A DNA stretch of 64,000 nt from the sequence record OM782452.1; one strand, given 5' to 3'. A program made the position numbers and the translations under genes. Origin of the DNA: Pseudomonas phage vB_PaeP_TUMS_P10. Positions 11,296 to 59,958 of this stretch are shown here, in pieces. The notes beneath the pieces were generated by a model. The model was not told where the DNA came from and did not search any database. It worked only from the letters and a program-made list of their open reading frames with translations. How positions within the stretch are numbered: position 1 is the stretch's first letter; every line of letters begins with the position of its first letter.

Positions 11296-14200
11296 TGGCT
11301 GACTTTGATCTCGATTCTTTCCTGGATGCGAGATTGGACGCGGAGGCTGGTACTGCACCAGCCTTCGATCCTTCTGCATTCGCTGATTTTGGCAACACCT
11401 TCCCCATGAAGGGAACCCAAAAGCAGTTCAACATCTACGAGATGGCAGAACAGAAGCGCCGGAACATCGAAGAGTCCTTGGTAGGCAAGCTGGGCATCAC
11501 TCCCGGTGCTACCGGTACTGGCCCAATCAACCTGGCTGCTTCCCTGGCTTCGGGTACTTCCCGTGTAGCCGGTCAACTGGTCAACCTGCCCCTGAACTTC
11601 GCTGCTCAGATGGGTCAAGCTGGTGTTTCCGAAGAAGCCATTCAGGCTTACAACCGGGAGATCACTGGTAACCCGCTGGAAGGTGACGATGCCATCCTGA
11701 ACCAGATCGCTGCTGGTGAAGACGGTGTTCAGCAAACCATGCGTGATCGCCTGATTGGTGTTCAGGGTCTTCGTGACGCCGGTAAGGCAGTACAGGACTT
11801 CTTCGACATCTCTTCGATTGTCGATACCACTGACCGTGACGCCATGAGTCGCGACATTGCTGAGCGTACCCAACAGGGTGTAGCTCTGCTGCGTGAATCT
11901 GGTGACCAACTGGAACGTGGTCAGATCCTGGATGCTCTGCTGTCCGGTGCTGCTGGTGCAACTCAGACCGTAGCCGGTGCTGTTGCTGGCACTGCCACCA
12001 ACCCCTCTGCTGTCACTGAGTACACCGTAGAGAACGCGCCTCAACTGGCAGCTGCTGCTGTGTCGGCACCTCTGGGTGTGGCCACCAACGTGGGCTACGC
12101 CGCTGATGAACTTCGTGAAGGCTATCGCGAATACGCTGAAGCCAACGATGGTCAACTGCCGGACCAAGAAGATCGCCTGAAGATGGGTGCCTTCGCTGCT
12201 TCCCTGGCAATGGCTGAACAAGTCGGCGACCTGAGCATGCTGCGGGGTATCCGTGGTGAGGCTGGTTTGCTCCGCTCGACTCTTTCCTCCAGTGCCCGTG
12301 AAGGTGTAACCGAAGGCTATCAAACCTACGGTGAAGCCCAGGTTCGACTGGACGATGCGAGCATCGAAGAGATCGTAGAAGGTGCAGCCATCGGTGCAGC
12401 TGTCGGTGGTTCCCTGAACATCGCTGGCCGTGCTGTACGTGGTGCATCCGGTGCCAAGTCCAAGGCTGAACAAGCCATCACTGACCGGGAAGCTGTAGCC
12501 ACTGCCCGTGAGACTGGTGACATTGCTGACCTGACCAACATCGAGTCGGAGAACTACAACCCGGCTGGTGCGGTGAGTGTGCTGCATGAGCAAGTCCTGA
12601 AGAACGACACTCCCGAAGTGCGTGAATCTGTCATTGCCCAGGCTGACACCATCGAACAGGAACTGGCTAAGCAGATCTCGGATATCGAAAGTGTCCAGGC
12701 TCTGGCCAGTGAAGAAGGTGTTGCTCGTCTGGTTGCTGCACGGGAACAACGTGAAGCTCAACTGGAACAAGCCACCCCGGAAGAGCGTACTCAGCTGGAA
12801 GCTCAGATCGAGTCGATCCGTAACCTGGAAGAAGAGGCTGCTGCCTACACTCCCGAACTGCGTGCTCAGGATGATGCAGAACTCAAGGATCTGAACCAAC
12901 GTCTGAAGGCTACTCGTGAAGCGATCCAGCGTCTGCATACCGATGCTGCGCCTACTGCTCCCGAGGTAGAAGAACTGGTTGCCCAGGCACCTACTTCTCC
13001 GGAAGCTGCTGAGCGTGTGATCACCCTGACCATGACCAACCCGGACAGTCTGAGCAACGAGCAGATTGCTTCCATAGTTTCGGACGAGTCCAATGGCTTG
13101 TCCCCGGAATACCGCACTGCACTCCGCAGCTTCGCTCAAGCCAAGGAAGCCATGGATGAACTGAAGGGTTTGTCCGGTGTTCGTACCGATATCGAAGTCG
13201 GTGGTGATGGTTTCAAGGGCATCCCTCAATACCGCAATGCTGTGCGTATGGCCCTGTCCAACGGGAACATCGAAGCTGCTACTGCTCAGGTAGACCAGCT
13301 GCGTGCCTTCGCAGATACCCGCCTGTCCAAGTTCGCTGCAATCAGCGATGCCTTCGACAAGGTGCAGGGTACCCAGGACTTCATCAACATCATCCCGAAC
13401 CAGGAAACTGGTGTGTGGGAAGTTGCTCCTGAAGGCATGACTCCCCGTCAGGTTCAGTCGGCCAAAGGGCTGCGTGTATTCGCCGGTTCTCAGAAGCTGC
13501 GTGATGCTGTAGCCATGGAAGCTACTGCCCTGGCACGTACTGCTGAATCCCTGCAAGCACTGATCAACGCCGGTCCTCTGACCAACGCTGTACAGGTTGC
13601 TCAAGAGCAAACCATTGCCCAGGAACAAGAAGTTGCTCCTGTAGCTGAAGAGGTGACCCCGGTAGCAGAGCCTACCGCTCAGGTATCCGAAGAGGCTGTT
13701 GCCCAGGAAGCTGAGACGGTCCAGGCGGAACCTGTTCCCGAGGTCGAAACTGGTGAACTGACTGCAATCCGTGAGGGTGCAGAAGTTCGTGGTAAGCCGC
13801 TGGCAAGCCAGGACTATCAGGACACCAACCTTGTTGGTGCGTTCTTCCAGCAATCGCCGGCCAAGCAAGAAGGTGACACCAAGAAGCCGCTGGCTTCGGT
13901 GAAGGACTTCGCTACTGCTGTCCGTACTGGTTCTGCCAAGCTGGCTGAGTTCGCTGGTGTTGAGTCCTTCACTGGTCAGCAACAGTCTGCCCTGAAGAAC
14001 TTCATGGGCTTCCAGCGTATGGCCAAGCCTCTGGTTGAAGCCAACCTGAAACAGTACGTCTCCAAGTCTGGCGATGCCAGCCGTTATCGTTTCCGGGACT
14101 ATGCTCAGTTCCTGGTGAACGCTGATGGCTCCCTTGATGAGAACGTCAGCACTGCTATCGCCTACGCTGCCTACGATTGGATCAACGATGCAGCTTCCAA

Positions 14201-25933: not shown

Positions 25934-25962
25934 TTAATCGAAAGAGCCGCTGGAAGCGGCCC
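25934..25962 (-). terminator. intrinsic terminator (minus strand)
   Basis: GCCGC-loop-GCGGC hairpin followed by CUCUUUCGAUU on the minus strand. Confidence 0.45.
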
Positions 25963-30010: not shown

Positions 30011-30307
30011 TCCACCCTCCCCCTCTTGAATTTACATTCAAGCCCCCGGAGGGGGCCGGGAGTCGGGTGGACCCTGGGAAGGTCTCTCCCCTGACCTTCT
30101 CCCCCTACCCTGAGACGGGGTAGTGTCAAGGGGGATCGGCGCCAGCCGCACGCCCCCGCAGACACGGATCCCGTCGAGGGGTAGGGATATTGATTTACCT
30201 ATACCCCTATACCCTACCGGAGTCCGTGTCTCCCACTCGGGCTTCGCTGCGCTCACCGCTCGGGGGACACTACCCCGGTAGGGTATAGGGGGGAGGAGGG
30301 GGAGAGG
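30011..30307. repeat. GC-rich nested inverted-repeat region between divergent gene blocks
   Basis: Nested inverted-repeat pairs: 30011-30025/30288-30307 (C-rich/G-rich); 30104-30128/30266-30291 (12-bp perfect core cggggtagtgtc/gacactaccccg); 30158-30170/30219-30233; inner 30176-30188/30201-30220, which also carries a tataccc direct repeat. Local hairpins at 30076-30097 and 30104-30124. Confidence 0.7.
30042..30056 (+). promoter_or_regulatory. GCCCCC-GGA-GGGGGC mini-hairpin (6-bp stem, GGA loop)
   Basis: Perfect palindrome with the same GGA loop as the 54426 and 55463 palindromes. Confidence 0.3.
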
Positions 30308-32664: not shown

Positions 32665-35600
32665 ATGACCACCAAGGTGATCTTCACCTTCCATAACCCG
32701 GATGGTAGTCCACAGGCCGGAAAAGAGTTTTCCGTCCGACTGACCCGTCCGGGTATGAACGATGCGGATGACTGCATCGTCCTACCTGAAAGCTATGACA
32801 TGACCACGGATGCTCAAGGTCAGTTCACGATGGATCTGGAGGCAGCTACTTCGGCATACCGGGTTTCCGTAGTGGATGACGACTCGTTCGAGGATGATCC
32901 GTGCATTCGCACGTCGTTCACTTTCTACGTGCCGGACTCCCCCACTCCCGTTCATGTACAGGAACTGATCCTGCTGCCTCCGCCCACGTCTCTGCCGTGG
33001 GACGAGGAAGCCATGAACAAGATCACCCAAGCTGTCGTAGATGCACGCGAGGCCCGTGACGAAGCCGAAGGTCATGCTGATCGTGCCGAAGAGCAGGTAG
33101 ATCTGGCCAAAGCCGAGGTCGTTAAAGCCCAAGCTGAAGTCGTCAAGGCCAAGGATGAGGTGACCAAGGCACAGGCTGAAGTAGCTAAAGCTGCCCAGCA
33201 GGTTGAGCTTGCAAAGGTTGAAGTAGGTAAGGCGGGAGCCTCTGCTGCTGCGGCCAAGGTCAGCGAAACCAATGCCGCGAATTCCGCTGCTGGTTCTGCT
33301 GCTTCGGCGACTGCTGCGACCAACCAAGCCAACCGTGCGAAGACGGAAGCTGATCGTGCCGAATCCCTGGCAAACCAAGTTGCCGAGAAGGTAGAAGGCG
33401 GCAACCTACCTGCACTGGTAGGAATGAACGAAACCTTCACCTACGAAGGCGGCGAGGATCATTACAACTGGACCCGAACCGGTCCGGTGAATGTGTCTCA
33501 GCACACTGGTTTCATTCGGATTTCCAAAACCGATGCCTCCGGTTCCCGTGCTTTCATTCGAAAGTCTGTCGAGTTCCCGGATGGGCACTGGATCACCTAC
33601 TTCCGGGTGAAGACCCAGACGGGTACTGCTGCACAGAACAACTCGGCCCAGATCCGGTTCCTCTCTGCCGATGGCAAGGACTACACGGTTTACTTCAACA
33701 TCAATGCCAATGGCTTGGTGGAACCGAACACCATCCATATGCAAGGTAGCGAGGGTGGGGCACGTAATGCCGCCACCATGTTCACTGGCTTGAATACCGA
33801 AGCCTGGATGGACATGGCAGTAAAGTTCGATGCCGTGAACCGCCACATTGAACTCTTCCGCCGTATGCCCAATGGCACCTGGCAGAAGGGTGGCGGTCGC
33901 TTGATGGTGGACACGATCAAGCCTGCGATCATCGAGATCTCTTCCATGCCTGTCGCACCCAATGGGTGGTGGATGGACGTGGACTTCATCACGGTTTGCC
34001 GACCGAACCTCATCTGCTACGGCGACAGCATTGCTGCCGGTCAGAACGAGTACGGGGTAACCCGAGGTACTGCGGATTACCACAACAACCGTAACTGGGC
34101 AGGAACCTGGTTTGGCCAGTCCAGCCTGTATGCCACCAACCGGAACAACCTGGTTCTGGTCCAGGGTGTAGAGGGCCGGCGTACCTGGCAGTATCTGGAT
34201 AGCCTGGGTGAGATCGAGAACTCCGGTGTGAAAGTGGTGTTCCTGCATGCAAGCACGAACGACCACAAAGACGCCACCATGACCATGGCCAAGCGTACTT
34301 CGGACACCCAAGCCATCGTGGACCGACTGCATGCTGTCGGTGCTCAGGTGGTTCTGTTCAATGCCATGCAAGGCACCAAGTTGTTCAACGATTCGTTGGC
34401 CGAAGGGGTGACCAAGCTCAAGGCGTACACCGATCAGTGGTGGTCCGAGGAACTGCATAAGGTCACTGGTTTGGGACAGGTTCTGGACATCGCCCGTGTG
34501 GTAGGCAAGGACGGTTACTTCGACCCTGCTATCGCTGCGGATGACGGTCTGCACCTGACTGCTGCATCTGCGAAGAAGATCGCCGACAAGCTGGGGCAGT
34601 TCTACTCGAACTCCACTTCCATCAATGGTTTGGCTCCTCTGGAAAGCCCTGCGTTTACCGGTATTCCTACCGTTCCAACGCAGACTCCTTTCCTGCCTTA
34701 CGGCAAGCAGATCGCCAACACCGAGTACGTCATTACCTTCATTCAGGACTGGACCAGTAACTACGGTTACGGTGACCTGACGATGCGTAACAAGACCGGT
34801 GCTCAGATGGCAGCTGGTGGTGTTCGTAGTGGTTACTACTACGTTCCTGGGGATTCTTCTAACCCCCTACCGGGAAACATCTATGCATTCGTGCATCACA
34901 TGTCCTACGACAACAACAAGGGTTGGGAACTCTGGAACCAATGCTATTCCGACCGCATGTACATGCGTTATTCGAACAACCAGGGTGTCTGGCAAACTCC
35001 GGTGGAGGTGGTCACTGAGAAGTGGATGGATCGCAATAGCTTCATGACCCCACGGGTTACTGCGTTCAACCGTTTGCCCGTGGCTTCTGCTGCCGGTTAT
35101 GAAGGGGTTGTCCCCCTGCAAGCTGGGTCCAGTGGTGCATGGCGTAACTTGAACGCCGGTTCTGCCGGGATCGGGTTGCTGGGTGCTGCTACGGTCGAGA
35201 ATGCGTTGAACTACATCGGTGGTACTCCGAAGACGATGACCAGTCTGCGGTCCTACAGCGATGCCAACGCCATCCCGAATGAGTGTGGCTTCTACGGTGT
35301 TGGGATTGCACCCTGGGCGAACTTGCCTCCAGGTGTAACCTCCATCAACCCGGTGGGTTCTACCATCTACCATCAGGTTTACGATGCCAGCACTGCTACG
35401 CAGATCTTCATTCCTCGTACTTCGGATATCTGCTATTTCCGCCGTAAGGCTGCGAACGTCTGGAGTCCTTGGGTACGCTATCTGACCGATAAGCAGTTGG
35501 TAGGCACCACTACCAACAGCAGCACCGGGGAACCGAACGGTGCCATCATGGAAAGCGGTACAACTGCCAATGGCTGGTACATCCGATTCGCTGATGGGAC

Positions 35601-38992: not shown

Positions 38993-40534
38993 TTAGGATT
39001 CCAGGGTACGCTTCAGTCGCTTTTCAGCGTCTTCCGGCATTCCCAGAACAACCCAGCCCTTCTTCTTGGCCTTCTTGAAGTCCAGGCAGGCTTGTGCAGC
39101 AGCCTTGTCCTTCGGGTTCTTCATGAAGGTGGCGAAGAGGGCGGCGCCTTGCTCGGCCAGGGTCTGCTTACCTTTCGGAGCAGCTTCCTTGACCGCCGGA
39201 GCCTCGGCCTTCTTGGTTTCAGCCTTGGCCTTGGAGGCAACCTCGTGAGCTACCGCCTTGGCATCGACGGCATCTGCCTTGAGGCTGGTTTCGATCTCGG
39301 TGTCGATGGCCTTGGCTTCGCCCGCGCCTTCCAGGTTGTTGGCCTTCAGCTGCTTCTTGTCGAAGCCCTGATTGCCCATCTTGGTGACGCGGATGTTGGT
39401 GCCCTTGTGGCCACCGATCTCGACACGCTCCAGTACGCCAACATGATCGCCGGCGATTGCCTTGGCCAGGATCTTGGCGCAGGTCGGATCGTCGGTCATC
39501 GGTTGGTTACGCTGGAGCTTCTTGCGAGCTTCGTCCGGCAACTCGAACAGGATGTGGTAGCCACATACCCGCATCTTGTTGGCGTCGTACTCCGGCACGG
39601 CGATCACGTCTTCCGGGGCTACCTTACCGAGGACGCAAACGTCCCCGCTGAAGGTGCCCAGGTACTGACGACGGGCGACGTGCAGGCCATTGGAGCACTC
39701 GTTGCGGCGGTTGGGATCCACCAGGGACTTGTCCATGAAGACATGGCTACCGACACGTTGCGGAACCTTGCCGGTGTGGCAATCCACGAAGTGACCGGCA
39801 CTGGTGCGACGCAGCAGCTTGTAGATGATGATGGAGCCATCATCCGCAATCGGCAGGTCACCACGCTGCATGAACTTCATCAGGTCGTCCTTGGAGTGCT
39901 GACGCTCATGGCTTACGCTGGCGACGCGCTCCAGGAACTTCTGGAGTCCCTTGGCACTGGACTTGCCCTTGGATACCGCAACCACCTGGGTGGCCAGCTT
40001 CTGGGCGTCAGCCACCACCTTGCCATCGACGACGGCGACCACGGTGTCGGCACTGGTTTCGCTCAGGGTCAGGTCGGAAGAGACCGCAGGACGTGCGTTC
40101 GACAGGATTTCATCGACAGCGGAAGCGAGCTTCTCGTCCTTGATTTCAACCTTCTCGACGGCCAGGGGAGCAGACGCAGCGTCCACCTTAACCGCGCCAG
40201 CGGTGAAGGGTTGGACCGGAGTCTGCGGTTCCTGGCTGTCATCGCCGATACCCAGCGCAGCCTTCACCTTCTCCTTCGCCACACGGAAGAAGCGAACCAG
40301 TCCGTTGGACTTCTTCTCGACTTCTTCGAAGTGGTTGATGACGTTGGCCACCTTGTCGAGGTCGATCATCACCTCGGCACCGGGAGCACCCAGGCGAGGA
40401 ACGAGGAAGTCCACGGCAGGTTTCAGCCGTGCATCTCCTTGCGGGATGCGGACGGTTTCGGTCGTGCCCTTGAGGTACAGGGTCAGGTTCTTTTCGTCGA
40501 GGATTGCACCTACGACGCAGATTTCTTTTGACAT
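38993..40534 (-). CDS. rIIB-like protein
   Basis: 513 aa immediately downstream of the rIIA-like gene, AAGGAG RBS. Called from adjacency and size only. Confidence 0.4.
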   Translation of the reverse strand: MSKEICVVGAILDEKNLTLYLKGTTETVRIPQGDARLKPAVDFLVPRLGAPGAEVMIDLDKVANVINHFEEVEKKSNGLVRFFRVAKEKVKAALGIGDDSQEPQTPVQPFTAGAVKVDAASAPLAVEKVEIKDEKLASAVDEILSNARPAVSSDLTLSETSADTVVAVVDGKVVADAQKLATQVVAVSKGKSSAKGLQKFLERVASVSHERQHSKDDLMKFMQRGDLPIADDGSIIIYKLLRRTSAGHFVDCHTGKVPQRVGSHVFMDKSLVDPNRRNECSNGLHVARRQYLGTFSGDVCVLGKVAPEDVIAVPEYDANKMRVCGYHILFELPDEARKKLQRNQPMTDDPTCAKILAKAIAGDHVGVLERVEIGGHKGTNIRVTKMGNQGFDKKQLKANNLEGAGEAKAIDTEIETSLKADAVDAKAVAHEVASKAKAETKKAEAPAVKEAAPKGKQTLAEQGAALFATFMKNPKDKAAAQACLDFKKAKKKGWVVLGMPEDAEKRLKRTLES

Positions 40535-52203: not shown

Positions 52204-52385
52204 TACAAACTCCTGTAGACTTAGGTTTCTTTCATTAGAGAGGGACACACAATGGCTGCACCAGAATTCAAACTGATGCACTGAAAACTATTCACCTGAT
52301 ACTGTTGATTGGTTATATCTAACTACCCATGGCGAGAATCCGTCGGGTGTTATCGAACTGGTGGACTTCGGTTACGGCAATGACT

Positions 52386-52583
52386 TCAACATGCCCCCTG
52401 AGCCGGAGGCGACTCGCGAAGAGTCTTGAGTAGGGTATTGTGGTAGCCCATTAATGCTCGCATGAAGTCGTGATGGTTGCCCTCGGGAAGCAAGAGCCTT
52501 GCTTCTTCGAGGGCTTCTTTCGTTGTGGTGTAGGTTGGGTACAGCACCTGGGCTACAGGCCGTACTTCTTGAAACTGGCTCAT
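52386..52583 (-). CDS. hypothetical protein
   Basis: 65 aa, AAGGAGG RBS. Confidence 0.4.
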   Translation of the reverse strand: MSQFQEVRPVAQVLYPTYTTTKEALEEARLLLPEGNHHDFMRALMGYHNTLLKTLRESPPAQGAC

Positions 52584-52602
52584 GTAGCCTCCTTGGTTTC
52601 AG

Positions 52603-53061
52603 TTACTTGAAAGCCGCCCGGACCTTGGCCAAGGAGGTAGATGCCTCCTTCATGCTGGTCAGTATTTGGGCGATATGGTTCGGGTGTGTTTCCGGGGAGA
52701 TCCCAAGGGTTTCAGTGACCGCCTTCTTGAAAACCAGCAGGTCATTGCGCTCTGCCGTCAGGTTAATGATCTCTTCCTCCCTTCGTTTCAGTTCTTCTTG
52801 TAGAACCTGGTCACTCGCCAGGAGCATGTCCCTTTCTTCTACCACGGCCACGAATCCCTCACGTACCTCGGCCATCTCACCCAGGGTGAGGGTAGCAGAC
52901 TGTGTTTCGCTTTCCTGGGAAGGGGCGGAAACCTTTTCGATGGCAGAGTGGCTTCTCTGCCTGTACACCTTCATCGTTGTCTTGCCATCTTCCAGGTTGG
53001 AGATCCGGTAATGCATCTGGATCAGGGCCTCGTAGATCTCAGCGATCTTGTTGCTGTCCAT
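52603..53061 (-). CDS. hypothetical coiled-coil protein
   Basis: 152 aa, GAGGAA RBS. Confidence 0.45.
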   Translation of the reverse strand: MDSNKIAEIYEALIQMHYRISNLEDGKTTMKVYRQRSHSAIEKVSAPSQESETQSATLTLGEMAEVREGFVAVVEERDMLLASDQVLQEELKRREEEIINLTAERNDLLVFKKAVTETLGISPETHPNHIAQILTSMKEASTSLAKVRAAFK

Positions 53062-53662
53062 ACGTTTTCCTCAGTAAGGTTGAGGGGAAGCTACCAATGT
53101 GGTCCCCTCGAATGTCGTTGAGATGCACGAAGCGGTATTCACGCCCCCATGCATCCGTGTTGATGTCACCGTTGACGCCGTAGACGTAGCCGGTGCGTAC
53201 CTTGTTCGAACCCGAGTTCAGACCCGCAGGGATCTTCACCGGGCAGCCGTACTTCATCTTCGCCGCCTCGTAGGCATTGATACCCGCTTTGTGATAAGCC
53301 ATGTACAGAAGCTCACCTTGCCGGCGACTGCACTGGATGATGGGATGTTCATCCAGCACACGAAGACGCAGGTAATAGTTCGGGCCGGTCTGGGCAACAC
53401 CGATCACGAATCGGGTATTCACCAGATGGCCACGGGTTACCTCCACGAACTTCGGAAGCCCTTGCTTCAGGGTAGCTATGGACTCCCGAGAGTAGACTGC
53501 GGTGTACAGCTTGAAGTTGTGGATGAACTGGACATCGAGCATCTTGTTGTCTGCCCGAATGTCCACGATGTTTGCTACAGGTTGGTCGAACTTACCCAGA
53601 CCCAGGGTTTCGAGGTCCAGGGTCTTGATCTCGTCCTCCCAAACCAAGGGAAGTCTGGCCAT
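53039..53662 (-). CDS. hypothetical protein
   Basis: 207-aa ORF. Confidence 0.45.
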   Translation of the reverse strand: MARLPLVWEDEIKTLDLETLGLGKFDQPVANIVDIRADNKMLDVQFIHNFKLYTAVYSRESIATLKQGLPKFVEVTRGHLVNTRFVIGVAQTGPNYYLRLRVLDEHPIIQCSRRQGELLYMAYHKAGINAYEAAKMKYGCPVKIPAGLNSGSNKVRTGYVYGVNGDINTDAWGREYRFVHLNDIRGDHIGSFPSTLLRKTYGQQQDR

Positions 53663-53665
53663 TGG

Positions 53666-54133
53666 TTATACCTTCTTGGCTTGGAGCGCCACGTTGGTAG
53701 CAGCCATTACGAACTGCTCATGGTTACGCTGGGTTGGCACCCGCTGAGCCGTGGTGTGGGCGTTCTTCAGGGTGTTGACCAGAGACATGAGACTGACCAT
53801 ATCTTCGGTCAGCGGCTTCTTGGCTTGAGCTTCCTGCACATAGCGATCACGCTCGGCCACCACGTCCTTCAGTTGCTCGGACAGTTCCTTGTTGGCTTCC
53901 ATGACACGACGACTCAGGCGCTCGGCAGACTTGAGCTTGCGCTCCAGTTCTTCCACCTTTTCCTGCGCCTGCTGTGCCCGGCCATAGGCCAGGTGAACTC
54001 GGTCAGCGAGACTGTCTCGCTCGTCCTGGGCATCGTGGAAGCGGTGGCGCATCTGCTTCAGCAGGTCTTCCAGCACACGGATCTCGCGTGCTTGCTGGTA
54101 CTGGTTCAGGAAGGGGATGAATACTTTGATCAT
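53666..54133 (-). CDS. hypothetical coiled-coil protein
   Basis: AAGGAG sits before the ATG at 54133 (the ORF track extends to 54217). Confidence 0.4.
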   Translation of the reverse strand: MIKVFIPFLNQYQQAREIRVLEDLLKQMRHRFHDAQDERDSLADRVHLAYGRAQQAQEKVEELERKLKSAERLSRRVMEANKELSEQLKDVVAERDRYVQEAQAKKPLTEDMVSLMSLVNTLKNAHTTAQRVPTQRNHEQFVMAATNVALQAKKV

Positions 54134-54143
54134 GGGGTACTCC

Positions 54144-54362
54144 TTACTTGGTTTGGTTGAGTTTCTGGACTTCTTCGTAGATCCCGTACAGGACAAACCA
54201 GAGTCCGAAGGAGGCACCTACAGCGAGGGCGCCACCCAGTGCGAACAGCAGGCCGAAGATTTCACCTCCCAGCTGATTGCCGACAATGGCAGCGATGATC
54301 ACCATCACAATGCCGATCACCGCAGCGGAACGATCCAAAAACAGAAGGTAGGATTTGCGCAT
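54144..54362 (-). CDS. small membrane protein
   Basis: 72 aa with 2 TM helices and an AGGAG RBS. Confidence 0.45.
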   Translation of the reverse strand: MRKSYLLFLDRSAAVIGIVMVIIAAIVGNQLGGEIFGLLFALGGALAVGASFGLWFVLYGIYEEVQKLNQTK

Positions 54363-54425
54363 ATCTCTTTGCTCCTAAAAAAGAAAAAGAAAACTATCTA
54401 ATCGAAATGAATTAAGCAGCATGAA

Positions 54426-54442
54426 AGCGTTCGGAGAACGCT
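54426..54442 (+). promoter_or_regulatory. AGCGTTC-GGA-GAACGCT perfect palindrome (copy 1), N4-type hairpin-promoter-like
   Basis: 7-bp stem with a 3-nt GGA loop. The 15-nt core GCGTTCGGAGAACGC is identical to the copy at 55464-55478. Lies 1 nt past the stop of gene 54444-54629. Confidence 0.35.
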
Positions 54443-54443
54443 A

Positions 54444-54629
54444 TTAAGGTATAACGGATTGAAAATCCATCTTAATAAACCTGTAACGGGCATCGGCATA
54501 GTCTTTTCCGCTTAAACCAGGTAATTCTATTTCAGCCAATGCACGGAATAACTCTGTGTAGGTGTAAGTCCTCCCCTTCATTCTTTCATGTATCATCTTA
54601 ATTGCTGCATCTGACACCATGTGAATCAA
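54444..54629 (-). CDS. hypothetical small protein (AT-rich cassette)
   Basis: 61-aa ORF. Region GC is about 40% against about 55% elsewhere. Confidence 0.35.
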   Translation of the reverse strand: MIHMVSDAAIKMIHERMKGRTYTYTELFRALAEIELPGLSGKDYADARYRFIKMDFQSVIP

Positions 54630-54822
54630 CCTCTGCGTTGAAGATGGAGTCCAAGTCCAAAGCTAAATGAACCTTCTCCATGGTTTCCGCTCCAGGCAAC
54701 TCCTTGAAAAAGAAGTCTGTACTGTCAAAGAAGTGCCAGGAATCACGATCAACAACACCCACTAAGGCTAAGCGGGCTTTCAACTGTTGGGTTATTACGA
54801 GATTACTGTCTTGCATAAGCAA
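54598..54822 (-). CDS. hypothetical small protein (AT-rich cassette)
   Basis: 74-aa ORF overlapping its neighbours. Confidence 0.3.
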   Translation of the reverse strand: MLMQDSNLVITQQLKARLALVGVVDRDSWHFFDSTDFFFKELPGAETMEKVHLALDLDSIFNAEVDSHGVRCSN

Positions 54823-54991
54823 TCTCCTCTGCTGCCTCCATGAAACTACCGTTTACAGTACGGCCAAGTTCACCCATAGCACCTATCACGTAACCCCATT
54901 TATCTAGTATCTTTTCCTTGAAATACTTAGAAGACAGTTCATCAAGGTGGAGATACAAGATAGCCTTACCTAGTTCCTCGTTCATGATCAA
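54803..54991 (-). CDS. hypothetical small protein (AT-rich cassette)
   Basis: 62-aa ORF. Confidence 0.3.
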   Translation of the reverse strand: MIMNEELGKAILYLHLDELSSKYFKEKILDKWGYVIGAMGELGRTVNGSFMEAAEEIAYARQ

Positions 54992-55236
54992 ACCTTCGTA
55001 TAAAATTCCCGTTCGGCCCTTCGCAGTATACGAACGGTTTTAGGTAGTTGTTTGAGGATGTTGTCCGATACTCCAACGAAGTAAGACACACCACCCCAGT
55101 CACCCTCCTTGGCATGCTTATCCATCAACAAGCCAGAGTAGTGCCACTCGACTGATACACGAACCAACTTAAGACCAGTTACTGCTTCCATCAAATTGCT
55201 CCCATTAACTTTTGTTGGTGATAGTGCTCCAGCCAA
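54988..55236 (-). CDS. hypothetical small protein (AT-rich cassette)
   Basis: 82-aa ORF. Confidence 0.3.
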   Translation of the reverse strand: MAGALSPTKVNGSNLMEAVTGLKLVRVSVEWHYSGLLMDKHAKEGDWGGVSYFVGVSDNILKQLPKTVRILRRAEREFYTKV

Positions 55237-55385
55237 CCACCTAGAAACCTAGGGTGGCGAACTCCCGGTAGGTTTTTTCGGATAATTTCTAAATATGCAT
55301 GCTGCATAAAAGTGTGTGGCTTTAGACTGTCTATCCCAGACTCACTCTCTAACAATAAAATTAAAGCTTCTTGCTCCGGAACCAC
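55191..55385 (-). CDS. hypothetical small protein (AT-rich cassette)
   Basis: AAGGAGG sits 8 nt before a GTG at 55385. The ORF-track start at 55412 is a TTG with no RBS. Confidence 0.3.
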   Translation of the reverse strand: MVPEQEALILLLESESGIDSLKPHTFMQHAYLEIIRKNLPGVRHPRFLGGWLEHYHQQKLMGAI

Positions 55386-55410
55386 AGTGAAACCCTCCTT
55401 GAGATTACTC

Positions 55411-55443
55411 AAAAAAAGGATGCCTTCCCCTTTTCAGGGGAAG
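55411..55443 (-). terminator. terminator-like hairpin with U7 (minus strand)
   Basis: CTTCCCC-loop-GGGGAAG hairpin, then GCAUCC, then U7 on the minus strand. Confidence 0.45.
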
Positions 55444-55462
55444 ACAAGATCCAACTCAATGT

Positions 55463-55479
55463 AGCGTTCGGAGAACGCC
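55463..55479 (+). promoter_or_regulatory. AGCGTTC-GGA-GAACGCC palindrome (copy 2)
   Basis: Identical 15-nt core to 54428-54442. Lies 9 nt past the stop of the RNAP II large-subunit gene. Confidence 0.35.
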
Positions 55480-55486
55480 CTATCAG

Positions 55487-56731
55487 TTAAGACAGGGCAT
55501 ACTCACTATCACGGATGAGTTCAGACAGGTTGTGACAGGCACCTTCATACTGCACGTAGCTACCGGTGATCTGGTGGAAGATGTCATTGAGGATGTTACT
55601 GTCAGCCATCTCGGCGAAGATGTTGATGTAGTGCTGACGCATCTCGTTGCAGTAGTTGGGGTGGCACTTGAACTCATCGTGTACCGTCACCAGAGGGAAC
55701 GGCTTGTGGGCCAGCATGCTGACGCACAGATCCTTCAGTGCCTCCAGGTGATCGGTCTCCATGGCTTGCACAGAGTGCGTGTTAACGAAGGGTAGGATGA
55801 CAGCATCCACCATGTTGGTACGGTTGTAGAGGTCAATGTAGATCTTCACCTTCTCATCCTTGGTTTCAACCAGATCCACATCGTACAGAACGACACGACG
55901 CATCAGTTCATCACTGATGGTTTCGTAAGCGAACTCGGTTACCACGGGATCGTAGTTGCAGCGACGATGCATGGAACGCAGAACGTAAGCATCGATACTG
56001 TGGATGATGTTGGCAGCATTCTTCACGCTGCGTTCTTCACCGCAGACCACCTTGTAGGCGTATTCGAAGGTAGCACCGTCCATCTCATCGACTTCGATGC
56101 GGGTTTCCTTCATGGATACCGACTTGACCCGAGCATGGTAGTTGTCGGGCAGTACCCACTCATGCACCTCTTGGTAAGCCTGGTGGCTGTGAATCAGATC
56201 GGACAGCATCTCGTTCGGAATCGGGCACACTGCCTGGATGCCTTCGTAGAAAGCTTCCAGTTCAGGGGTTTCTTCACCGAACAGCTTCTTCGGCTCAGCC
56301 TTCGAACCATAGAGATGGGTCATGGTGGCCTTCTTGATATCCGAACGCTTGATATCACCTACCGAAGCACCCATAGCAGTGGATGCAGCGGTGGTAACCA
56401 AGCTGTAAGCATCCTGACGGAAGCCAGTGTTGACCAGATTGGTAGCACGAGCACCGTCAATGCAACCGCCAAGGGCAGACATGATCTGCATGCCCGAGCA
56501 GCAAGCATCCAAGCCAACCAAGTGACCAGAGGGAATGCCCTTCTGTGCTTCACGGATGGCTTGAACAGCTTTGTAGTACTGAGGTGCGGTCTTCTCTTCG
56601 CACTCCAGTTCTTCAAGCTCGTCGAAGTGATCCATTACCCACTGGATACGTTGCTCGAACAGGAGCTTGTCATGGCCGAACTGGTTTGCTGCATCAATGC
56701 ACAGATATTCGAATCCGGTGTAACGCTTCAT
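55487..56731 (-). CDS. T7-like RNA polymerase large subunit (N4 RNAP II gp16-like)
   Basis: Motif A-like LDACCSGMQ. Motif B-like KKATMTHLYGSK. Motif C-like VTVHDEF. GGAG RBS before the ATG at 56731. Confidence 0.75.
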   Translation of the reverse strand: MKRYTGFEYLCIDAANQFGHDKLLFEQRIQWVMDHFDELEELECEEKTAPQYYKAVQAIREAQKGIPSGHLVGLDACCSGMQIMSALGGCIDGARATNLVNTGFRQDAYSLVTTAASTAMGASVGDIKRSDIKKATMTHLYGSKAEPKKLFGEETPELEAFYEGIQAVCPIPNEMLSDLIHSHQAYQEVHEWVLPDNYHARVKSVSMKETRIEVDEMDGATFEYAYKVVCGEERSVKNAANIIHSIDAYVLRSMHRRCNYDPVVTEFAYETISDELMRRVVLYDVDLVETKDEKVKIYIDLYNRTNMVDAVILPFVNTHSVQAMETDHLEALKDLCVSMLAHKPFPLVTVHDEFKCHPNYCNEMRQHYINIFAEMADSNILNDIFHQITGSYVQYEGACHNLSELIRDSEYALS

Positions 56732-56810
56732 GGTGTAACTCCTATCGCAGTTGGTACTGAACACACTTAAAAGGAACCTCCCTCAGCCGAAGCCAAGGGA
56801 GGCGCAGGTA

Positions 56811-57134
56811 TTACTCGGCTTGCATGTTGGCGATGTTCTCGATGGTCAGCGTCTTCATCAGACGGACCTCCTTCGGAACCGAATGCCATACATCCGGCGC
56901 ACCGATGGTCGGCGGATCAACGAACGCATGGTCGAAGGTGACTGCGTTGTCCTTCTTCTTGTCCAGGAAGCCCCAGAACCAGCGCTTGGCTTGCAGATCG
57001 AAGTTCCAGATGCCTTCCAGTTCGGGATTGCTTTCCAGGAACTTGGAGATCTTGCCGTCCAGGATCAGCTTGCACTCCATCTGGCCGCTTTCGTTGGTGA
57101 AGAAGATCAGGTCGCCGTTTTCGTAGTTGCTCAT
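56811..57134 (-). CDS. hypothetical protein between the two RNAP II subunit genes
   Basis: 107 aa, GAGGA RBS, ATGA overlap with the upstream gene. Confidence 0.45.
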   Translation of the reverse strand: MSNYENGDLIFFTNESGQMECKLILDGKISKFLESNPELEGIWNFDLQAKRWFWGFLDKKKDNAVTFDHAFVDPPTIGAPDVWHSVPKEVRLMKTLTIENIANMQAE

Positions 57135-58066
57135 TTGGTAATCCTCAGATGTTGGGGTACGCCAGTGACCTCTTCCTTGTTGTAGAGGTCGATCATGGCT
57201 TTCTTGTAGGACGCACCTTGGGTCGATATGTGATAACCCTGTGCGTACAACCGTCCACGCTTGTCTACCTTGTGCAGCAGGTAGAACTTGTTGCCTTGTT
57301 GCACCATGAGCTTGTACATCTCATGGCTTTCAGTCTTGAACCGCATCCAATCATCCTGTTGATCTCTGTTCTCCAGGCGCTTGTTCGGTTCTTCCTCGAT
57401 GGTGCTGAGGAATTCAGTGTTAAGACACAACTCAACACTGTTCACCAGGTTCAGAACATCCAGACAGATGTCTCCACCATGGTGATTGTCATTCAGGATC
57501 AGACTCTCAGCCTCACAAGTGAGACGAAGCTTCTGCTTGTTGCTGGTCAAGGTGGCAGGAGCACAAACCATGGGTGGTAAGTACTGCGATCTCTCAACGA
57601 AGCGCATCAGATCTTCAGGTAGCTCGATGTTGGACACAACCTTCCAGCTACCGAAGCGTTCATTCTGCTCCAAGTTGTACAGATCTAGCTCACAGAGCAC
57701 CGCAACCATCTCAGCGATGGTTTTGATGCTGTCAGCCTTGTCATCAAAGCCAAGTACATGAGCCAGTTTCGCAGTGAAGCTGCTAAACAACTCAGGAACC
57801 TGACAGTACAGCGATGCAACTGCTACCTCAGTGGTGATGTGACCCAGGTCAAGGTTACGAACTGTCTCCATTCGGAGGTTCTTGGACTCATAACCGTGGT
57901 CCGTGTTGGCGTACTCTTCCAGAAGAGCAACACCAGCAGACAGAACCTCAGTCCAGTCCTCATCTTGTTGGAGAAACTTACGCAGATACCCGTCAATGTG
58001 CGCCCGTGCAAAGCGGTACTCATTGGCGCGTTGCATATCCTCCGGGAGCATGTGAGTTGGGTGCAT
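57131..58066 (-). CDS. T7-like RNA polymerase N-terminal subunit (N4 RNAP II gp15-like)
   Basis: NKFYLLHKVDKRGRLYAQGYHISTQG aligns to T7 RNAP NKFANHKAIWFPYNMDWRGRVYAVSMFNPQG. 311 aa. Confidence 0.65.
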   Translation of the reverse strand: MHPTHMLPEDMQRANEYRFARAHIDGYLRKFLQQDEDWTEVLSAGVALLEEYANTDHGYESKNLRMETVRNLDLGHITTEVAVASLYCQVPELFSSFTAKLAHVLGFDDKADSIKTIAEMVAVLCELDLYNLEQNERFGSWKVVSNIELPEDLMRFVERSQYLPPMVCAPATLTSNKQKLRLTCEAESLILNDNHHGGDICLDVLNLVNSVELCLNTEFLSTIEEEPNKRLENRDQQDDWMRFKTESHEMYKLMVQQGNKFYLLHKVDKRGRLYAQGYHISTQGASYKKAMIDLYNKEEVTGVPQHLRITK

Positions 58067-58110
58067 AACAGATCCTTAACGATGACTATCTATAGGCGGC
58101 AGAACCGCCC

Positions 58111-58551
58111 TTACGGGCGGCTCCAGAACGTGATGTTGTCAGGGCACATTTCCACCGGCCCCTTCACGAGGAAGTACGGCACATCCGTACCGGGCATCTC
58201 GACGTGATAGGAATGGTCCGGGTTCGCATTGGCCAGGTTGGTTAGCATACGCAAACCAGTACCGACACAGTTCAGGTCCGTGGGATCCTGGAACCGACGG
58301 CAGGTCTGCAACACGCCAATCTTTCCACTGGCTTGAACGCCGAAGATCCCATGGTTTCCCCCGTTCTTCAGGATGAAACCACCGATGGCTGAAGCCAGGC
58401 CGGCTTCCGGGAACCGTTGCAGCAGTTCAGCTGCCATGCCCTTGTTCAAGACGGCGTTGCCCGATGCACTGACAGTGCTGCTCAGACATACGATGAAGTG
58501 GTCAGCACTCTCGAATGCTTCCCACATGTTCCCTACTTCGAATTTGGCCAT
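58111..58551 (-). CDS. hypothetical protein (weak macro-domain-like pattern)
   Basis: 146 aa. The IVC-SS--SASGNAV-NKGMAAEL segment is loosely macro-like. Assignment is tentative. Confidence 0.25.
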   Translation of the reverse strand: MAKFEVGNMWEAFESADHFIVCLSSTVSASGNAVLNKGMAAELLQRFPEAGLASAIGGFILKNGGNHGIFGVQASGKIGVLQTCRRFQDPTDLNCVGTGLRMLTNLANANPDHSYHVEMPGTDVPYFLVKGPVEMCPDNITFWSRP

Positions 58552-58802
58552 TAGATCAGTGCTCCTATGGGCAGGTCGATGCTACAGCAGTCGCTGGTTT
58601 CAGCCGTCAGTAGCAGTTTGTTGTGCTCTGGCACATACACCAGATTCCAGCGGTGACCTTCGTCTTGGTCGATCACACGCATACGCTTGGTCAGATGACG
58701 AAGCGCGATCTCACGCATTGCTTCAACGACGTTCTCGCCGTCAGCGATGAACAAGCCATCGCTATCGCGGATCACAATCTTCTTCAGGTAGGTGCGAGTC
58801 AT
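58551..58802 (-). CDS. hypothetical protein
   Basis: 83-aa ORF. Confidence 0.4.
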   Translation of the reverse strand: MTRTYLKKIVIRDSDGLFIADGENVVEAMREIALRHLTKRMRVIDQDEGHRWNLVYVPEHNKLLLTAETSDCCSIDLPIGALI

Positions 58803-58873
58803 CTAATAGTCCTTTCAGAAATGAGTGTTTGTAGTTCAGCTTTTCTTTCCAGTACTTCTGCTGCATATCCCAG

Positions 58874-59050
58874 TTATGCATTGCCCGAGCATGCCGGCTC
58901 TTCTGTGCCCTCGTCGTAATCCTCGTAGAATGGCCCGTCATCTAAGTCTCCCAACTGGAGGTTTGGATTGGACAAACCCTCCTTCGTGTACTTGTCGTGT
59001 AGTGACCAGAGCAGAAGCCAGGCTTCCTCAACTGTATCGTCCTCTGCCAT
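58874..59050 (-). CDS. small acidic hypothetical protein
   Basis: 58 aa, TGATG overlap with the upstream ORF. Not in the ORF track. Confidence 0.3.
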   Translation of the reverse strand: MAEDDTVEEAWLLLWSLHDKYTKEGLSNPNLQLGDLDDGPFYEDYDEGTEEPACSGNA

Positions 59051-59274
59051 CAGCGGTGACCCCCGTACTTATTACGCGGCCCCATTCCTTCATGGTTTGT
59101 CTCGTGGGACTTCTTGGGCTTACTGGGCCTTATACTCCAGCCATCATCGAAGATGATCTGGGTGGGACTGAACGGATCACGGATGAGATCCTCCTTCCGT
59201 TTCTTCTTGCGAAGAGCTTCGTCATGCCTCAGTTCTTCAAGCAACACCTCAATACTGGGTATGTGGTCATGCAT
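59050..59274 (-). CDS. hypothetical basic protein
   Basis: 74 aa, GGAG RBS. Confidence 0.4.
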   Translation of the reverse strand: MHDHIPSIEVLLEELRHDEALRKKKRKEDLIRDPFSPTQIIFDDGWSIRPSKPKKSHETNHEGMGPRNKYGGHR

Positions 59275-59356
59275 ATAGTCAGGTCTCCAAAACCATGGGT
59301 TAGCACATGGTTTTCCTCGCCGAAAACTTCCGAATTCGGCGATTTACTTTATGGGT

Positions 59357-59585
59357 TCAGATTCGAGTGGCCCGAGTGTTCCCACTCTTGGTTCCGCAGA
59401 GGTGAGAAAGGCCAGAACCGATACTACAAAGTCCGGCGCCGACAGCATCAGAGACAGACGCAACCTCAGTACGAGGAAGATGATCAGTACCCTGCTGAAG
59501 CAGAGCCATTGCAGCAGCAACGGAATCGGCATTACGTTCACGGGAAGCCTTCGAGTCGATGTAGATGGGCTTGGGATGTTTCATG
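59357..59585 (-). CDS. hypothetical protein
   Basis: AAGGAG sits 8 nt before the ATG at 59585. Confidence 0.4.
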
Positions 59586-59605
59586 GTGGAACTCCTTACA
59601 GTCTG

Positions 59606-59650
59606 ACGGATAGCACAAAGAACACGCCCAACCCCCAAGAGGAGGTTGGG
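59606..59650 (-). terminator. terminator-like hairpin
   Basis: 8-bp stem GCCCAACC/GGTTGGGC followed by a U-rich GUGUUCUUUGUG on the minus strand. Confidence 0.35.
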
Positions 59651-59657
59651 CATGGTG

Positions 59658-59958
59658 TTACAGGTCGAGCGCTCGCTCTTCCTCGCTGCGGGTGACACCC
59701 AGCTTGATGATCAGCCGGCTGACCAGCTTCTTGCAGCGCTCGGCGTAAGCGGTTTCGCTCAGCGGCTTGCCCTTGTCGTCCACGGTCAGGAACTCTTGCA
59801 GCTGCATGTGCAGTGCATCGTCCGCACGCAGGCCGAGGCTTACCAGACGAACGTCCTTGCCGTCACGGGTCGGGAAGTGGAAGTTCAGGTAGGCCGAAGC
59901 GCCCTTGTTATCGGTGGCTTGGGTGTTGCGAGCTTGGTTCTTCTTGACGAGTGCCATG
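59658..59958 (-). CDS. hypothetical protein
   Basis: GGAG sits 7 nt before the ATG at 59958; 99 aa. Confidence 0.45.

Follow-up and report, generated by a model that had tools for sequence, protein, structure and literature searches.

The 64,000-nucleotide stretch of the Pseudomonas phage vB_PaeP_TUMS_P10 genome analyzed here (sequence record OM782452.1; hereafter the window) contains a low-GC block of five small genes, g1–g5, that is bracketed by two short palindromes, designated hairpin a (54426-54442) and hairpin b (55463-55479). An initial annotation of this region had proposed a horizontally acquired, moron-like cassette whose boundary palindromes might act as recombination or regulatory sites. 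Our analysis indicates, with a probability that we place near 0.9, that the palindromes are hairpin promoters orthologous to PE7 and PE8 of phage LUZ7, and that the block makes up the variable opening portion of an early operon. The two hairpin promoters have already been mapped and published for LUZ7; the feature is real, and mostly already explained.

Hairpins orthologous to mapped LUZ7 promoters

With respect to phage identity, this region of the window shows 97-98% identity to Ka3, Ka4 and PA152 and 91% to LUZ7, all of them Pseudomonas phages of the Schitoviridae, genus Luzseptimavirus. An open reading frame (ORF) of 3,403 aa at 11295-21506 matches the LUZ7 virion RNA polymerase (RNAP) in size, and together with the Luzseptimavirus relatives it shows that the N4-like context assigned at the outset was correct.

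The LUZ7 transcriptome has been mapped by ONT-cappable-seq (Putzeys et al. 2022; PMC9163698; bioRxiv 10.1101/2022.03.18.484859, Tables S2-S5), which established start sites, operon structure and a weak terminator experimentally in that phage. Nine early transcription start sites (TSSs) are listed in its Table S2, including PE7 (TSS 8259, primary for orf23; upstream sequence ...gggcgttctccgaacgctccattG) and PE8 (TSS 9543, primary for orf29; upstream sequence ...tagcgttctccgaacgctttcatG) (bioRxiv 10.1101/2022.03.18.484859). The 50 nt upstream of both sites contain gcgttctccgaacgc, of which the palindrome of the initial annotation is the reverse complement, and the 15-mer core of the palindromes sits at exactly the homologous PE7 and PE8 positions of the LUZ7 genome. 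Specifically, the 50-nt region upstream of PE7 maps to window positions 55506-55457 with 94% identity, and the PE8 upstream region maps to 54446-54420 with 100% identity. By homology to LUZ7 TSSs 8259 and 9543, the predicted minus-strand TSSs are located at 55457 (PE7; G in the RNA) and 54420 (PE8; also G), each 14 nt from the center of its hairpin. The predicted 5′ untranslated region (UTR) of the PE8 transcript is 57 nt long (54420-54363) and extends up to the following gene.

Direct comparison of the two phages reveals that the 15-nt core and the location of both promoters, after the RNA polymerase II (RNAPII) gene RNAP2 and before the gp29 homologue, are identical. The sequence from hairpin to TSS is likewise the same for PE8 (tttcatG), whereas for PE7 it reads tccattG in LUZ7 and tacattG in the window. 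The genes between the promoters belong to different sets of alleles, six in LUZ7 and five in the window, and the TSSs themselves were measured in LUZ7 only. In that phage, transcription units TU22-24 begin at PE7 and TU25-27 at PE8 (Tables S4 and S5), and orf23-orf33 constitute “operon 3”, which carries the label host takeover (bioRxiv 10.1101/2022.03.18.484859). The supposed cassette is the promoter-proximal portion of this operon. Taken together, orthology to the mapped TSSs, to the LUZ7 terminator T12 and to these transcription units argues that the palindromes are promoters at the head of a known early operon. The suggestion that they might be regulatory sites is thereby borne out by the experimental mapping of PE7 and PE8; they are not primarily insertion scars.

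In terms of sequence and structure, the 16-mer AGCGTTCGGAGAACGC is found on the plus strand at 54426-54441 and 55463-55478, and no third site exists in the window even at three mismatches, as had been claimed for its core. The chance expectation is 0.59 matches, with three or more in none of 100 shuffles; a third “match” reported by the scan is copy a read on the opposite strand. The plus strand is the template for the leftward (minus-strand) genes, and on it hairpin a reads AGCGTTC-GGA-GAACGCT (loop center 54434). When folded as single-stranded DNA, hairpin a adopts a perfect 7-bp stem closed by a 3-nt GGA loop. Hairpin b, which reads (A)GCGTTC-GGA-GAACGC(C) on the same strand (loop center 55471), likewise folds with a GGA loop, but its stem is 6 bp because the outermost A and C remain unpaired.

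Hairpins with a GGA loop and a perfect stem of at least 6 bp number four on the plus strand of the window and zero on the other strand (expected 0.29; four in none of 200 shuffles). All four coincide with mapped LUZ7 TSS positions, namely those of PE7, PE8, PM2 (30049) and PM3 (25953). The PM2 orthologue at 30042-30056 (GCCCCC-GGA-GGGGGC; TSS at 30035) and the PM3 orthologue at 25946-25960 (GCCGCT-GGA-AGCGGC; TSS at 25939) are oriented toward the minus strand and belong to the same class as hairpins a and b. The 15-mer core is identical in the window, LUZ7, KPP21, AM.P2, PJNP053, Ka3 and PA152, as well as in Logan assemblies, and always occupies the same syntenic positions, namely the two gaps that separate the run of small ORFs from the RNAP2 gene on one side and from the gp29 membrane-protein gene on the other. 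A scan of IMG/VR for the 15-mer produced 92 loci, nearly all of which were lone chance matches in unrelated contigs; a pair at the right spacing was present only in the LUZ7 and KPP21 records, and no new cassette variants emerged.

Moreover, equivalent hairpins are found at the same two positions in the genus Litunavirus (PEV2, PASB7, TUMS_P121 and PYO2), where one hairpin and a terminator-like stem-loop follow the RNAP2 gene and a second hairpin precedes the homologous membrane-protein gene. The stems in these phages (GCGTCT-GGA-AGACGC and AGCGTAC-GGA-GTACGCT) carry compensatory changes with the GGA loop unchanged, and the slot between them contains a single unrelated 50-aa CxxC protein. In an alignment of six hairpins, the inner six pairs are formed in all sequences and double (compensatory) changes are observed at 4 of 7 pairs, giving a covariation score of 0.69 versus 0.21 in shuffles and ≤0.19 in slid registers. 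The frame that remains invariant is A-GC-N4-GGA-N4-GC. PEV2 possesses five hairpins of this GGA class, of which two occupy the slot positions, one marks the 5′ end of sRNA_29.1 and two are found at sites homologous to PM2 and PM3; all five are on the template strand and none is on the opposite strand.

Three of these PEV2 hairpins merit separate description. Those at 35516-35528 and 39620-39636 are the ones at positions homologous to PM2 and PM3, and the PEV2 interval 35509-35535, annotated as a “terminator” in the record, looks like a PM2-type promoter. A third identical copy of AGCGTAC-GGA-GTACGCT is located at record positions 12042-12058, at the 5′ end of the highly expressed sRNA_29.1, which it probably drives; Luzseptimavirus genomes do not carry this third copy.

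A search for sigma-70-like promoters across 53500-57000 yielded zero sites, as compared to 3.0 expected, which is consistent with transcription by a non-host polymerase, and Rfam and tRNA scans of the region returned nothing. In the mechanism that we propose, the palindrome on the template (plus) strand would extrude a short hairpin with a 6-7 bp stem and GGA loop. We infer that a phage-encoded, single-subunit RNAP would recognize this hairpin, initiate at the G located 14 nt away and transcribe leftwards along the minus-strand genes. From hairpin b (PE7), just past the RNAPII large-subunit gene, the polymerase would encounter the weak attenuator/terminator T12 and then a Shine-Dalgarno sequence ahead of the five translationally packed genes, while hairpin a (PE8) would serve as an internal promoter that boosts the conserved downstream genes from the gp29 homologue onward. 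For annotation purposes, the palindromes are better labeled as hairpin promoters with predicted TSSs at 55457 and 54420 than as insertion boundaries, and the block as the variable head of an early operon.

Replacement of the low-GC block between conserved flanks

The block itself (54443-55462; 1,020 bp) has a GC content of 43.5%, versus a window mean of 54.3%. Windows of 1,020 bp taken outside the region average 54.5% (standard deviation 2.5%, minimum 48.7%), and the block, with a z of approximately -4, is the lowest-GC kilobase of the window. The flanking genes range from 52 to 57%. The compositional dip noted in the initial annotation is thus genuine, although its depth was slightly overstated (~40% GC against ~55% in the flanks).

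Comparison with LUZ7 reveals a loss of similarity within this block. The flanks at 52432-54446 and 55383-59802 align to LUZ7 at 84.5% and 91.6% identity, respectively, and between them (54447-55382) there is no detectable nucleotide similarity to that phage. One breakpoint lies 4 nt away from hairpin a and the other at the start codon of g1; replacement affects the coding content alone and spares the ribosome-binding site, the T12 leader and both promoters. At the protein level, the cassette genes are syntenic homologues of LUZ7 genes at 32-51% identity, versus 97% for the adjacent membrane protein. This divergence matches or exceeds that observed between genera (the membrane protein is 45% identical to its PEV2 homologue), and therefore the two alleles must have split long before the flanks, which in turn implies replacement by recombination in the conserved flanks.

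Gene content and spacing between the hairpins also vary. The number of genes is five or six in Luzseptimavirus and one in Litunavirus, and the inter-hairpin distance is 1,037, 1,248 or 1,455 bp in the KPP21/Ka3 group and 1,284 bp in LUZ7. The distance classes of the KPP21/Ka3 group result from an extra gp25-like gene at the g2/g3 junction and an alternative g1 allele. With respect to the 1,455-bp class, KPP21-type genomes contain ~200 bp of unannotated sequence between the g1-type and g2-type genes (KPP21 region 3303-3504) that accounts for it. All Luzseptimavirus genomes examined possess syntenic homologues of the block, with a GC content of 43-44% in both divergent alleles, and no empty site or cassette-less relative was found among ~13 genomes or assemblies.

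These observations support one part of the initial proposal and contradict another. The region is an exchange or turnover hotspot, as evidenced by a LUZ7 allele that has no nucleotide similarity to that of the window between flanks of 84-92% identity. It is not an extra insertion, since syntenic low-GC homologues are found in every Luzseptimavirus genome examined. A moron in the strict sense was also considered and rejected: there is no lysogeny, no strong terminator pair and no clean absence in relatives, T12 is weak and located at the 5′ end, and the block lies within a longer operon. The picture that we favor is one of conserved regulatory modules on both sides and, between them, small accessory genes that would turn over rapidly as alleles are replaced by divergent ones, paralogues are gained or lost, and recombination proceeds in patches. 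We infer that the homology for these exchanges most likely comes from the promoter regions and flanking genes, which are conserved.

T4-type phages offer the nearest precedent for promoter/stem-loop modules next to ORFans: their promoter-early stem-loops (PeSLs) border ORFan genes within hyperplastic regions and bring about modular shuffling (Arbiol et al. 2010, PMC2839356; Comeau et al. 2014, PMC4122927). In both systems, a repeated early promoter with a stem-loop or attenuator lies immediately upstream of small ORFans in a hypervariable early region, and replacement or indel polymorphism is seen between the repeats. The two differ in that PeSLs combine a sigma-70-type promoter with ~50 copies per genome, whereas the window has just two identical copies of what appears to be a hairpin promoter for a phage RNAP, with no sigma-70-like site in 53500-57000. 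We accordingly describe the relationship as one of analogy and not of membership.

A promoter-bounded slot that follows the RNAPII genes and is conserved across two genera represents a natural site for accessory-gene turnover. It is a sensible place in which to seek host-takeover or counter-defense proteins, and a candidate site for payload insertion in therapeutic N4-like Pseudomonas phages.

Promoter classes and competing accounts of the hairpins

The hairpin promoters of the window fall into two structural classes, a distinction absent from the LUZ7 paper. The strong early promoters PE1, PE3, PE4 and PE5 have stems of 4-5 bp, a T[T/A]C loop on the coding strand, and a distance from loop center to start of 12-13 nt; the spacing computed for PE3 is 14 nt but is probably 13, as its start in the window is uncertain by 1 nt owing to an indel relative to LUZ7. 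The stem is followed by a TTGG-like sequence in PE1 and PE3, and by TGAA or TGGA in PE4 and PE5. PE7, PE8, PM2 and PM3, on the other hand, share stems of 6-7 bp, a TCC coding-strand loop, a 14-nt distance from center to start and the AGC...GC frame, and lack TTGG. PE7 and PE8 resemble LUZ7 PM2 and PM3 in stem length (at least 6 bp), in their GGA template loop, in the 14-nt distance to a G start, in the A-GC-N4-GGA-N4-GC frame and in strict strand bias. The differences are that G-C pairs make up a smaller share of the stem in PE7 and PE8 (4 of 6 or 4 of 7) than in PM2 and PM3 (5-6 of 6), and that PM2 and PM3 are presumed to be read by RNAPII with its cofactor Drc, whereas the LUZ7 authors saw PE7 and PE8 at 5 min and assigned them to the early class.

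The early promoters of N4 offer a further point of reference. N4 P2 and P3 have a 7-bp stem and GGA template loop, as does the window, and N4 P1-P3 are situated in the left-end early region of a phage with a giant virion RNAP, likewise a feature of the window. The window hairpins agree with the N4 pattern in being template-strand hairpins with a stem of 5-7 bp and a 3-nt loop, and in having a purine, the central G of GGA, at the loop center, where N4 virion-RNAP promoters require one (-11) (PMC3715699). They depart from it at position -8, which is G in all of N4 P1-P3 but T in the window (C in PM2 and PM3; A or C in the PEV2 hairpins), and in the start site, which by homology to the LUZ7 TSSs lies 14 nt rather than 11 nt from the loop center. 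TTGG, which follows the N4 hairpins, is absent after those of the window.

Several points weigh against our assignment of the palindromes as promoters of a variable early operon. The TSSs are carried over to the window phage by homology, albeit with 100% identity of the promoter cores. Both promoters are weak in LUZ7 (197 reads per million (RPM) for PE7 and 1,111 for PE8, compared to 46,374 for PE1; bioRxiv 10.1101/2022.03.18.484859), and therefore read-through from upstream may supply much of the expression. The polymerase assignment in LUZ7 derives from sampling time alone (5 min) (PMC9163698). Furthermore, the lack of the N4 determinant -8G and the spacing of 14 nt instead of 11 nt mean that the structural model of recognition in N4 is not directly transferable. 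Finally, crossover at the hairpins themselves would be hypothetical: of the two breakpoints with respect to LUZ7, the one at 54446 abuts hairpin a, and the one at 55383 coincides with the start codon of g1 and is separated from hairpin b (55463) by 80 nt.

An alternative that leaves the promoter assignment intact concerns the polymerase, and holds that the hairpins are “middle” promoters read by the heterodimeric RNAPII and its cofactor Drc in place of the injected virion RNAP. The early/middle boundary would then fall right after the RNAPII genes, as in N4, and PE7 and PE8 would appear early only because they lie on the first DNA to enter the cell. We regard this possibility as plausible but less likely than not. 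PE7 is directly downstream of the last RNAPII gene, and PE7 and PE8 match PM2 and PM3 in all measurable features (stem, loop, 14-nt spacing and flanking motif), whereas the strong early promoters differ in their stems of 4-5 bp, T[T/A]C loops and spacing of 12-13 nt. PE7 and PE8 also show the geometry that the LUZ7 paper gives for middle promoters, namely stems of at least 6 bp, loops of 3-4 nt and ~15 nt before a G start (PMC9163698), and in PEV2 the same class recurs at the slot positions, at an sRNA and at the PM2- and PM3-homologous positions. Nonetheless, PE7 and PE8 carry an early label in LUZ7 on the basis of the 5-min sample (PMC9163698), and the 7-bp stem and GGA loop of the N4 virion-RNAP promoters P2 and P3 indicate that these features alone do not rule out the virion polymerase. 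An account at the level of RNA or of operator binding, in which the palindromes are terminators, processing sites, stability hairpins or symmetric operators for a dimeric regulator, is by comparison highly improbable, and we rejected it as largely refuted by end-mapping in LUZ7. The palindromes are intergenic, GC-containing inverted repeats, one of which immediately follows a stop codon, and the LUZ7 read-through transcripts TU23 and TU24 do include the PE8 hairpin. However, neither hairpin is followed by a U-tract on the coding strand, the terminator scan skips both, and none of the 61 mapped LUZ7 3′ ends is located at a hairpin (the nearest are T12 at 8301 and T14 at 9964). Primary (triphosphate-enriched) 5′ ends in LUZ7 are instead positioned 14 nt downstream of both hairpins. 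In addition, stem bases covary instead of staying fixed, and in every hairpin the template strand is the one that carries the GGA loop (4 of 4 in the window and 5 of 5 in PEV2), an orientation that a symmetric operator would not need.

The view set out in the initial annotation, that the palindromes are crossover or insertion boundaries of a horizontally acquired, moron-like cassette, is quite unlikely in our estimation, even though it accommodates a good deal of what is observed. The compositional break is real, the whole coding content has been replaced relative to LUZ7 between flanks of 84-92% identity with the left breakpoint 4 nt from hairpin a, and five, six or (in Litunavirus) one gene may be present between conserved hairpins. 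The cores of the Luzseptimavirus pair are identical to each other, unlike the Litunavirus pair, which is compatible with conversion or duplication, and T4-type phages provide a precedent for promoter/stem-loop motifs that mediate shuffling. Against this, no empty site exists among the ~13 genomes or assemblies, and the syntenic homologues in all Luzseptimavirus genomes indicate that there was no recent foreign gain; the divergent alleles moreover share the same 43-44% GC. The right breakpoint falls at the g1 start codon and not at hairpin b, and internal indels are found at gene junctions away from the hairpins. At 16 nt, the repeats are short for homologous recombination, for which the longer conserved flanks would serve equally well, and the promoter role explains the hairpins independently and sufficiently. 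A broader proposal combines elements of these accounts: PE7 and PE8, in place of being early promoters of the virion RNAP, would be the first members of a distinct class that includes PM2 and PM3 and extends across Litunavirus and Luzseptimavirus; they would mark the early/middle boundary, immediately past the RNAPII genes, and the promoter modules would double as recombination anchors for the swapping of tiny ORFans between phages. As a whole this proposal strikes us as somewhat unlikely; if true, the modules would constitute an N4-type counterpart of the T4 PeSL system. A GGA template loop, a stem no shorter than 6 bp and a G start at +14 together offer a clean definition of a second hairpin-promoter class in Migulavirinae. 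The LUZ7 authors describe their set of middle promoters as under-sampled (PMC9163698). The definition could help to find further middle promoters, and it opens the pairing of polymerases with hairpins to direct testing.

The small proteins, the T12 leader and neighboring genes

All five small genes are on the minus strand, and neighbors overlap or abut. The ORFs of 61-82 aa given in the initial annotation are present as listed, and once starts were chosen by Shine-Dalgarno sequences and the annotation of Ka3 and KPP21, the products became 64, 67, 60, 72 and 58 aa. The first gene, g1 (55191-55385; 64 aa), has a GTG start preceded by AAGGAGG at 55400-55394, and its product is 39% identical to LUZ7 gp23 (phrog_31990). 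It is followed by g2 (54988-55191; 67 aa), with 40% identity to LUZ7 gp24 (phrog_34163), and by g3 (54803-54985; 60 aa), a relative of KPP21 ORF067 and, weakly, of LUZ7 gp25. The acidic product of g4 (54598-54816; 72 aa; phrog_32811) is 51% identical to LUZ7 gp27 and 26% identical to its paralogue gp26. The last gene, g5 (54444-54620; 58 aa), is related to LUZ7 gp28 (32% identity) and has its stop codon 1 nt from hairpin a.

The absence of recognizable motifs reported for these ORFs was confirmed, as Pfam searches of g1–g5 found no domain above threshold and the PHROG matches all belong to families of unknown function. Relatives outside of Luzseptimavirus were not detected among 5.8 billion and 1.84 billion proteins and 50,697 phage genomes. 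Specifically, a word-indexed protein search with g4 returned the AM.P2 cluster only, and an exhaustive HMMER search of 1.84 billion representatives gave LUZ7 gp27 as the sole genuine match. Three more HMMER matches of g4 were long, repetitive proteins that share a low-complexity “PGAET” stretch, and these were judged spurious. A tblastn search of phages with g5 was similarly restricted to Luzseptimavirus, and a single-sequence AlphaFold2 model of g4 was unusable (mean predicted local distance difference test score (pLDDT) 44; predicted template modeling score (pTM) 0.28).

Literature on tested functions of LUZ7 gp23-gp28 yielded nothing past the generic “host takeover” label. Because these genes lie within an early operon labeled “host takeover”, are ORFans and turn over very fast, we consider that g1–g5 may encode small early proteins that bind host or defense factors; their most likely role would be in early takeover or counter-defense. 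Fast evolution without relatives beyond the genus is typical of proteins at the phage–host interface.

In terms of selection, g2, g4 and the flanks are under purifying selection where comparable, with nonsynonymous divergence (dN) much below synonymous divergence (dS), and g3 is the exception. The g3 allele of the window has no equal in any public genome or assembly examined, and its nucleotide identity to Ka3 and PA152 is 83%, versus 99-100% for g1, g2 and g5. The ~28 substitutions (0 indels) are clustered in ~90 nt, and dN (0.175) is approximately equal to dS (0.16). The encoded protein has an isoelectric point (pI) of 5.0 and a net charge of -3.4 in the window, as compared to a pI of 10.3 and a charge of +7.7 in all relatives. 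This pattern suggests either a recombination patch from an allele of unknown origin or strong diversifying selection.

The products of g1, g2, g4 and g5, along with LUZ7 gp23, gp24, gp26, gp27 and gp28, are of similar length and share an invariant Leu-Pro (often ELPG) at approximately residue 40. The genes g1, g2, g4 and g5 might thus be highly diverged paralogues arranged in tandem, but statistical support is weak: profile-profile comparison with hhalign gave a best P of 0.003 (F4 versus F5), and the hidden Markov models (HMMs) did not cross-match.

Between hairpin b and g1 lies a T12-like intrinsic terminator on the minus strand (55412-55446), consisting of a stem-loop at 55446-55421 and a U7 tract at 55418-55412, with the 3′ end expected near 55415. 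This element satisfies the definition of an intrinsic terminator. The LUZ7 T12 sequence maps to 55461-55415 at 100% identity, and a terminator scan selects T12 independently. In LUZ7, T12 is a predicted intrinsic terminator 42 nt downstream of PE7, with a transcription termination site (TTS) at 8301 and an efficiency of 6-20% (Table S3; bioRxiv 10.1101/2022.03.18.484859). The entire PE7 leader is conserved to the start codon, LUZ7 included. When the leader RNA of the window (the 5′ UTR of g1, 55386-55457) is folded, the U7 tract of T12 pairs with the g1 AAGGAGG in a second hairpin (minimum free energy -29.8 kcal/mol, z = -3.0), and in this model the leader could couple attenuation with translational masking of g1.

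Upstream of hairpin b, the RNAPII large subunit gene (55487-56731, minus strand) encodes a T7-like homologue of N4 gp16 and LUZ7 gp22, with a Pfam RNA_pol match on the homologous product. In the PJNP053 record (OR941788.1), the corresponding RNAP2 gene measures 1,962 nt (653 aa) rather than 1,245 nt, with a surplus that matches Pfam GFP (PF01353). This record appears to represent an engineered reporter phage with GFP fused to RNAPII.

Downstream of hairpin a, the first gene of the PE8 unit (54144-54362, minus strand) encodes a 72-aa hydrophobic, membrane-type protein that is 97% identical to LUZ7 gp29 and 45% identical to Litunavirus PEV2 gp24.9, the latter annotated with 2 transmembrane domains. 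The homologue of the LUZ7 internal early TSS PE9 is located at 54320, inside this gene, with an upstream sequence that is 96% conserved and without a hairpin; the LUZ7 authors suggested that non-canonical starts of this kind depend on an upstream hairpin promoter (PMC9163698). Further along, the interval 52276-52431 is only 156 bp in the window, whereas LUZ7 has ~1.5 kb there with orf34 and orf35, two opposite-strand late genes annotated “tail protein” and driven by the late promoter PL2. A similar opposite-strand pair, including a collagen-like gene, is found in PA152 but not in Ka3. The orf34-orf35 position, where the early operon ends, is a further hotspot of insertion and deletion.

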